A stretch of DNA of 64,000 nt from Escherichia coli (GTDB taxonomy: Bacteria; Pseudomonadota; Gammaproteobacteria; Enterobacterales; Enterobacteriaceae). How positions within the stretch are numbered: position 1 is the first letter of the stretch; the number at the start of each line of letters is the position of its first letter. Under the pieces are notes generated by a model, which saw only the letters and a program-made list of their open reading frames with translations, searched no databases and was not told the origin of the DNA. Shown piece after piece: positions 41,595 through 42,114 of the stretch. Where the stretch lies: the NCBI RefSeq assembly GCF_003334305.1, contig NZ_QOWS01000005.1. The stretch is one strand, 5' to 3'. Both the position numbers and the translations under genes were made by a program.

Positions 41595-41912
41595 GATATG
41601 GGGTTTGGTCGTTGTTAATGAGCACGACAATCATGACCGCCAACGACTGGATTCTTCCTTGGTTTATACTGGTGCGCATAATGTATATTATGTTAAATCA
41701 TGTCTGAGTGATGCGAAGTGCTTTTCTGGTAGTCGTTATTCGTTCAGGGTTCAAGAAATTAAGCCTCTCCTCTTTCATAATTGGCCTGTGCATGGAGAAA
41801 TAGCCTGGTTATTCCCTGCCCCATGCTAAGAGCGCAGTGTCTGTCGCATAGACACTGCATACGAAAACACCAGAGGGTGCTGTTACTTATTTAAGGACGG
41901 ATCAAGCGGGAA

Positions 41913-42114
41913 TGAGTCCACTCCGGTATCAGAAATGGCTACGTCTCAATGAAGTCAGGCGACCGATGCTGAATGAACATTACGATGTCACCACAGCAGC
42001 CTATGCTGTCGGTTACGAAAGCTATCCCATTTCAGTCGGGAATATTCGCGGATGTTTGGAGAGTCACCCAAGAGAGATATTACCAGGTTAAGAAAGTCTG
42101 TCGGTCAGCTTTAA
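41913..42114 (+). pseudogene. yneL: Remnant of an AraC/XylS-family regulator C-terminal HTH (frameshifted; yneL-like)
   Basis: Translation ...TAAYAVGYESY then, after a +1 shift, SHFSREYSRMFGESPKRDITRLRKSVGQL: an AraC signature split across two frames with no intact N-terminal domain. Confidence 0.5.

Follow-up and report, generated by a model that had tools for sequence, protein, structure and literature searches.

The closest described counterpart of the feature studied here is yneL (b1506) of Escherichia coli K-12, which is named 'putative HTH-type transcriptional regulator YneL' and which the K-12 MG1655 annotation carries as a pseudogene. A 2022 survey of uncharacterised E. coli transcription factors placed YneL among the pseudogenes (PMC9308461), and the PeerJ survey gives a microarray signal for yneL, so the region may be transcribed (PMC9308461). 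Also related is YqhC, an aldehyde-responsive activator of the divergent yqhD-dkgA operon (PMC6115493, PMC8262776). For the F9 (Fml) fimbrial operon, which follows yneL, Wurpel et al. 2014 reported that H-NS binds the f9 promoter region and represses it at 37 °C and that the fimbriae are expressed at 20 °C (PMC3966885). In the same work the f9 transcript was shown by 5'-RACE to start 251 nt upstream of the major-subunit ATG, with a -10 of CATAAT and a -35 of TAGTCG. The region 5' of f9 was described as variable, with hypothetical regulators for which there was "no evidence" of a link to f9 control, and F9 sequences were reported to be unique to E. coli and Shigella (PMC3966885).

We analyzed a window of 64,000 nucleotides of E. 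coli DNA, which is the whole stretch introduced above. The gene order is an autotransporter, hipB, hipA (ending at 41594), a spacer of 950 nt, the six-gene F9/Fml operon and ydeP (Table 1). The genes of the operon are, in order, the major subunit, a chaperone, an 883-aa usher, ydeS, ydeR and ydeQ. A sequence-only reading of this DNA had described a decayed AraC-family gene between hipA and an intact fimbrial operon, and this is what we find, with all six F9/Fml genes intact. The F9 operon of K-12 differs in that the major subunit, the chaperone and the usher N-terminus have been deleted, leaving ydeT; the deletion begins about 820 nt into a query made of 41550-42560. That same stretch is 100% identical between the window and E. 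coli strain 120899, and 5406 of the 5426 complete E. coli genomes match at least part of it. We found no structured RNA matches in an Rfam scan of 41300-42700 at E<=1, and no terminators in a scan of 41500-42600. Two other genes of the neighborhood are worth recording. The counterpart of the 1806-aa autotransporter is a pseudogene in K-12 (yneO, b4696) and is split into ydeK/ydeU in O157 Sakai, and farther downstream, at 52041-52802, there is an intact gene of the AraC family, the acid-response gene ydeO.

Table 1. Features in and around the hipA-F9 spacer, with positions in the window.
Feature	Position	Strand	Description
ECSE_1600 family autotransporter (PGAP name)	34377-39797	+	intact, 1806 aa
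74-aa ORF	41605-41829	+	mechanical ORF spanning shards A-C
Shard A	41633-41699	.	conserved non-coding piece, found at the operon-distal module edge in other genera
Shard B	41735-41779	-	relic of the 5' end of a DUF2255 gene, first ~12 codons
Shard C	41819-41905	.	relic of the hairpin region just downstream of an alpha/beta-hydrolase gene
yneL pseudogene remnant	41906-42114	+	codons ~236-304 of a 304-aa AraC_N/HTH_18 regulator
Frameshift (1-nt deletion)	42022-42025	+	T lost, AGCTTATCC -> AGCTATCC, at about 42023
F9 (fml) promoter	42261-42297	+	-35 TAGTCA 42261-42266, 18-nt spacer, -10 CATAAT 42285-42290, TSS G ~42297
F9/Fml fimbrial operon	42547-48908	+	six intact genes; major-subunit ATG at 42547

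The window and K-12 alleles of yneL share the locus, the truncation junction and the 1-nt frameshift and are a few substitutions apart; the equivalent of b1506 in the window is 41912-42114. In strain 120899, PGAP annotates 41906-42114 as a pseudogene ('frameshifted; incomplete; missing N-terminus'). The sequence-only reading had held that the region translates, across two frames, to an AraC-type C-terminal helix-turn-helix (HTH), and we recovered both peptides: frame 1 from 41849 reads ...GMSPLRYQKWLRLNEVRRPMLNEHYDVTTAAYAVGYESY, and frame 3 reads SHFSREYSRMFGESPKRDITRLRKSVGQL*, with its stop at 42114. When four intact homologues were compared with the window by tblastn, adjoining HSPs at 41912-42022 and 42025-42093 were found in different frames, with summed E values across the four homologues of 8e-19 to 5e-14, and no part of the homologues outside residues ~240-300 of 310 is covered. 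After repair of the frame, the peptide matches Pfam HTH_18 over model positions 16-76 of 80 (E=1.7e-16) and HTH_AraC at E=3.9e-5, and by this match to the C-terminal DNA-binding domain it belongs to the AraC/XylS family. At the nucleotide level, 41906-42126 is 85% identical over 222 nt to the full-length gene and reaches its stop codon.

The remnant retains the linker helix and the second HTH only. The first HTH, which occupies residues 204-244 in the intact protein, is absent and the second is split by the frameshift, and the remnant has no complete bipartite two-HTH domain in a single open frame. The frameshift noticed earlier is real, but it had been placed near 42035-42045; both alignment A1 and tblastn locate it 12-20 nt farther upstream. 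Alignment A1 has the gap in the window and in K-12 and no gap in strains 2D and Sakai. The deletion takes out the Leu codon of ...YESLSHFSREY.... The absence of an intact N-terminal domain was also read correctly: regulator residues 1-235 have no similarity anywhere in 41400-42300 by blastn or by tblastn (four homologues, E<=10, word size 2), so the PF06719 sensor domain is missing from the locus. Because the sensor domain and the first HTH are gone, the remnant is unable to act as an AraC-type regulator. An ATG-started ORF of 59 aa is present inside it at 41912-42091.

We consider yneL to be a pseudogene, as 77% of the coding sequence is gone, a 1-nt deletion has disrupted the frame of what is left, and constraint is relaxed. 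The pN/pS was 0.41 among seven remnant alleles and 0.12 among six intact copies from several genera; both values come from few substitutions and from pairs that are not independent, and their direction fits what would be neutral decay of yneL. We counted 10 distinct amino-acid changes among the remnants, all of them within a core that hardly varies in the intact copies, and the SHFSREY motif is among the places affected. One codon was unusual. At 41963-41965 the intact copies have Leu (CTG), while the window has CCG (Pro), K-12 has CAG (Gln) and Sakai has ACG (Thr), so that three different replacements are clustered at a single site.

A word-indexed protein search for relatives of yneL returned only fragments of at most 154 aa, and the full-length relatives came from exhaustive HMMER and DNA searches; the HMMER search, made with a longer relative, gave full-length proteins of about 300-326 aa. 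The sequence-only reading had noted that the AraC similarity would be spurious if no related genome held an intact homologue. Intact homologues do exist, both in E. coli and in other genera. The DNA search found an intact 304-aa homologue in 93 of the 5426 complete E. coli genomes, and orthologous proteins 93-96% identical to it are encoded in Citrobacter youngae, Enterobacter vonholyi, Enterobacter sp. MGH 24 and Klebsiella michiganensis. The E. coli copy (for example WP_000622442.1) is in the argW/intS (tRNA-Arg) island, away from the yneL locus; the island location comes from one example that we examined, and the other listed records were judged by two separate matches per record. A scan of the genome collection by exact peptide words gave only 4 loci outside Escherichia. 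One source label, 'rhaS [Klebsiella pneumoniae]' for protein P0005, looks misannotated.

The intact 304-aa protein consists of AraC_N (PF06719, E=1.6e-44) followed by HTH_18. PF06719 is also precomputed for relative P0122, and with this domain the closest full-length relatives are YqhC-like AraC_N proteins. Over the C-terminus, the intact regulators are about 85-89% identical to the window remnant in nucleotides and ~90% in amino acids, with the stop codon in the same position. They differ from it in having the sensor domain, both HTHs and divergent ADH/hydrolase partners, whereas the window has only the last codons of the regulator and shards of the partner genes.

The regulator of Enterobacter vonholyi is transcribed divergently from an operon encoding an Fe-alcohol dehydrogenase (ADH), an alpha/beta hydrolase, a DUF2255 protein (the ORF matches DUF2255 at E=1e-39) and a KefF-like NAD(P)H oxidoreductase. 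The divergent neighbor of the regulator in Citrobacter and Klebsiella is the alpha/beta hydrolase, and in the E. coli argW island the neighbors are the hydrolase and an ADH fragment. YqhC and these relatives are alike in having PF06719 AraC_N with HTH_18, and, in the intact E. vonholyi module, in being encoded divergently from an Fe-dependent alcohol/aldehyde dehydrogenase. However, the regulator is only 31% identical to E. coli YqhC (over 255 aa) and the E. vonholyi dehydrogenase is 33% identical to YqhD, which makes this a paralogous system and not yqhC itself, and the operon adds the hydrolase, DUF2255 and oxidoreductase genes to what the YqhC system has. From homology and gene order, the ancestral gene was most likely the sensor-activator of a paralogous operon for aldehyde/electrophile detoxification. 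In four long-read assemblies (L006-L009, 7433-8387) frameshifts divide the full-length regulator into three ORFs, and many of its neighbors are broken up in the same way; these are probably assembly errors and not genuine pseudogenes.

We then compared the part of the spacer between hipA and yneL (41595-41912) to intact modules with blastn, and there were three further matches, which keep the order and orientation of the module (shards A-C in Table 1). Shard A is 82% identical over 68 nt (E=6e-12) to L014 2563-2629 and also matches L013, L015 and L006-9, and its columns are invariant among the E. coli alleles in alignment A1. Shard B, collinear with the module, is a short match of 45 nt at 80% identity (E=2e-5); on the minus strand it reads MKEERLNFLNPE, compared to MKEERFMFWNYE in the intact DUF2255 gene. 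Shard C is 79% identical over 82 nt (E=3e-15) to L014 4395-4476, L008 5859-5940 and L011 6475-6552. It contains a hairpin with arms at 41834-41842 and 41850-41858, and alignment A2 has this hairpin and its flanks conserved in 4 intact modules. The segment is present in one copy per genome in 3075 of the 5426 E. coli genomes. Shard C directly adjoins the regulator remnant at what is a deletion junction of ~3.2 kb, and we therefore conclude that in this lineage a single deletion of this size accounts for the loss of the hydrolase and ADH genes, of the promoter region between operon and regulator, and of regulator codons 1-235. The only partner relics in the window come from the operon outside of the ADH gene, namely the DUF2255 start and the hydrolase-downstream hairpin.

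The 74-aa ORF had been suggested as another possible fragment of the regulator. The ORF exists, but it has no tblastn similarity to four intact regulators and it overlaps the shards of other genes.

Shard A has a motif of its own, GCGCATAATGTATATTATGTTAAAT at 41671-41699, which is invariant in five aligned E. coli alleles. The motif recurs (27/27 to 33 nt) at the module edge in other Enterobacteriaceae and is also present in the WP4-type strains that have no yneL. A sigma-70-like match, TTTATA-17-TATTAT, overlaps it.

The locus is not the same in all E. coli lineages. The Sakai and 2D alleles are without shard C; in its place, 60 nt from inside the hydrolase gene are joined to the regulator at codon ~217. 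The remnant in these strains is not frameshifted, is 88-89 codons long and has 57 nt more of the regulator than the K-12/window type. Deletion alone cannot turn either of these two types into the other, so a longer ancestor must have eroded independently in these lineages. The WP4-S17-type allele has no regulator remnant and no 60-nt hydrolase shard, and keeps more of the operon-distal region. As the K-12, Sakai/B2 and WP4 types keep different shards, we conclude that the deletions were independent.

Several candidates were discarded while looking at these alleles. The ~110-nt difference between the K-12/window and Sakai/2D types at 41795-41905 is not an inversion (there is no reverse-strand blastn match) and is not a repeated or mobile element (it is single-copy and found at this locus only, in 3075 genomes). 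A segment of proteins P0003/P0004, 'HTGYRLAG...CVEES', appeared similar to 'HGYRIG...RVEEL' of the regulator, but it is the 60-nt hydrolase piece of the Sakai/2D allele and the resemblance is a coincidence.

Our conclusion is that yneL is a 3' relic, about 23% in extent, of a YqhC-like AraC-family transcription factor, and that it has no function of its own. We are highly confident in the wider reading, that it is the dead remainder of a YqhC-like regulator from a decayed, putative detoxification module and that F9 is controlled separately, in trans. The E. coli ancestor would have had a module of ~5.4 kb between hipBA and the F9 operon, in which an AraC_N-type regulator was divergent from an operon of a YqhD-like Fe-alcohol/aldehyde dehydrogenase, an alpha/beta hydrolase, a DUF2255 gene and a KefF-like NAD(P)H oxidoreductase. 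With YqhC-YqhD as a guide, aldehyde/electrophile detoxification was probably the role of the module. Several deletions, differing by lineage, would then have destroyed it. In the K-12/window lineage one deletion would have brought regulator codon ~236 up against the hairpin downstream of the hydrolase gene, and the loss of 1 nt would later have frameshifted the remaining piece. The module at the yneL locus is a reconstruction from shards, as none of the 5426 E. coli genomes retains the whole module between hipA and F9; the best coverage of the module is 57%, in the argW-island version. That the relic exists and is non-functional was already known. The only new element is the spacer as what appears, from these sequence comparisons, to be a multi-shard ghost of a defined module.

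The F9 operon is driven by its own mapped promoter downstream of the relic, with H-NS and temperature acting in trans. A consensus scan found this promoter in the window ~150 nt downstream of the yneL stop, and the predicted start is about 250 nt before the ATG of the major subunit. With a promoter of its own in the window and with the published control by H-NS and temperature, the known regulation of the operon is independent of the relic. The sequence-only reading had offered control in trans as one possibility for the fimbriae, and this is correct, although it had already been published (PMC3966885).

The same reading had also proposed that a dedicated fimbrial regulator was lost here, leaving the fimbriae unregulated or dependent on factors in trans. 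Position speaks for this, as the relic is immediately upstream of the F9 operon and in the same direction. Some fimbrial operons do carry AraC-type activators, and the Rns/CfaD/AggR group resembles yneL in having a C-terminal HTH of the AraC/XylS fold family and in lying adjacent to a fimbrial operon. However, the intact relatives bear a YqhC-type AraC_N sensor domain. To our knowledge AraC_N is not found at the N-terminus of proteins of the Rns group, which is set apart here by domain and family matches, and no fimbrial activator is among the 18 NCBIfam families matched by an intact relative at E<=1e-5. Intact copies from four genera and from the E. coli argW island are next to ADH/hydrolase genes and in none of these contexts next to fimbrial genes, and relics of those same partner genes adjoin yneL in the window. 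The only intact copies linked to F9, in 7 genomes, are recent imports flanked by IS elements. F9 is reported from E. coli and Shigella only, while the regulator is widespread, and the putative regulators 5' of f9 came without evidence of a link to it (PMC3966885). We consider a lost F9 regulator to be unsupported and very improbable.

Even less probable, in our view, is that the remnant still works as a small single-HTH protein, for example by modulating the F9 promoter or by interfering with YqhC-like regulators. An ORF with an ATG is there at 41912-42091, versions of 67-91 aa without the frameshift are widespread (P0001, P0020), the relic persists in most E. coli genomes, and an expression signal has been reported (PMC9308461). 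On the other hand, the window/K-12 allele is frameshifted within the recognition region, the WP4-type lineage is entirely without the relic, and residues that never vary among the intact copies have been substituted; one of these changes, an L->P in the window, breaks a helix. The pN/pS is about 3-fold above that of the intact copies, and our scan found no sigma-70-like site directly upstream of 41912. From the MarA and Rob structures, we know of no case of half of a bipartite AraC domain binding DNA alone. We give equally little credence to the narrower version of this idea, in which only the unframeshifted B2/D/E-type relic (67-89 codons) would be translated into a mini-protein that still recognizes operators and modulates the F9 promoter or the targets of incoming YqhC-like regulators. 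A chance match of non-coding DNA to AraC proteins can be dismissed altogether; it has the short length of the match in its favor and nothing else, and it is contradicted by the Pfam E value of 1.7e-16, by the 85% nucleotide identity over 222 nt that ends exactly at the stop codon of the full-length genes, and by the independent PGAP annotation.

For biology at large, the relic of a YqhC-like regulator carries little weight. The value is modest and is one of annotation hygiene: it would be a mistake to take the yneL relic for a fimbrial regulator that was lost. The spacer between hipA and F9 is also a handy lineage marker and a small example of stepwise decay of a module.

There are 7 genomes (SWHEFF_68 and six others, H68-H74) in which an intact 304-aa regulator is found ~480 bp upstream of the yneL remnant (L019 8983-10645). 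These linked copies share 97.8% identity with the gene of Enterobacter vonholyi; IS3 and ISEc21 flank them, within an island that bears an integrase. From the identity and the IS flanks we conclude that they are recent imports and not survivors of the ancestral module. For an import landing beside its own ghost we considered two options, chance and homology with shard A. If the remnant were a working mini-protein, then the intact copy beside the ghost in these genomes would be a functional linkage and not a coincidence.

Other replacements were seen around yneL. In E. coli WP4-S17-ESBL-03 (L003 3150-3620), ~450 bp of different sequence with no annotated gene takes the place of the yneL remnant, and this segment is partly similar to the stretch of the Enterobacter module that separates its LysR and KefF-like genes. 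Some other E. coli strains (L017 and L018, positions 1-6541) have a LysR-regulated cluster instead of hipBA, and the same truncated yneL persists directly downstream of it. The cluster encodes aldo/keto reductases, an NAD(P)H oxidoreductase, a quinol monooxygenase and a carboxymuconolactone decarboxylase. The region upstream of yneL looks like a hotspot for redox and detoxification cargo.
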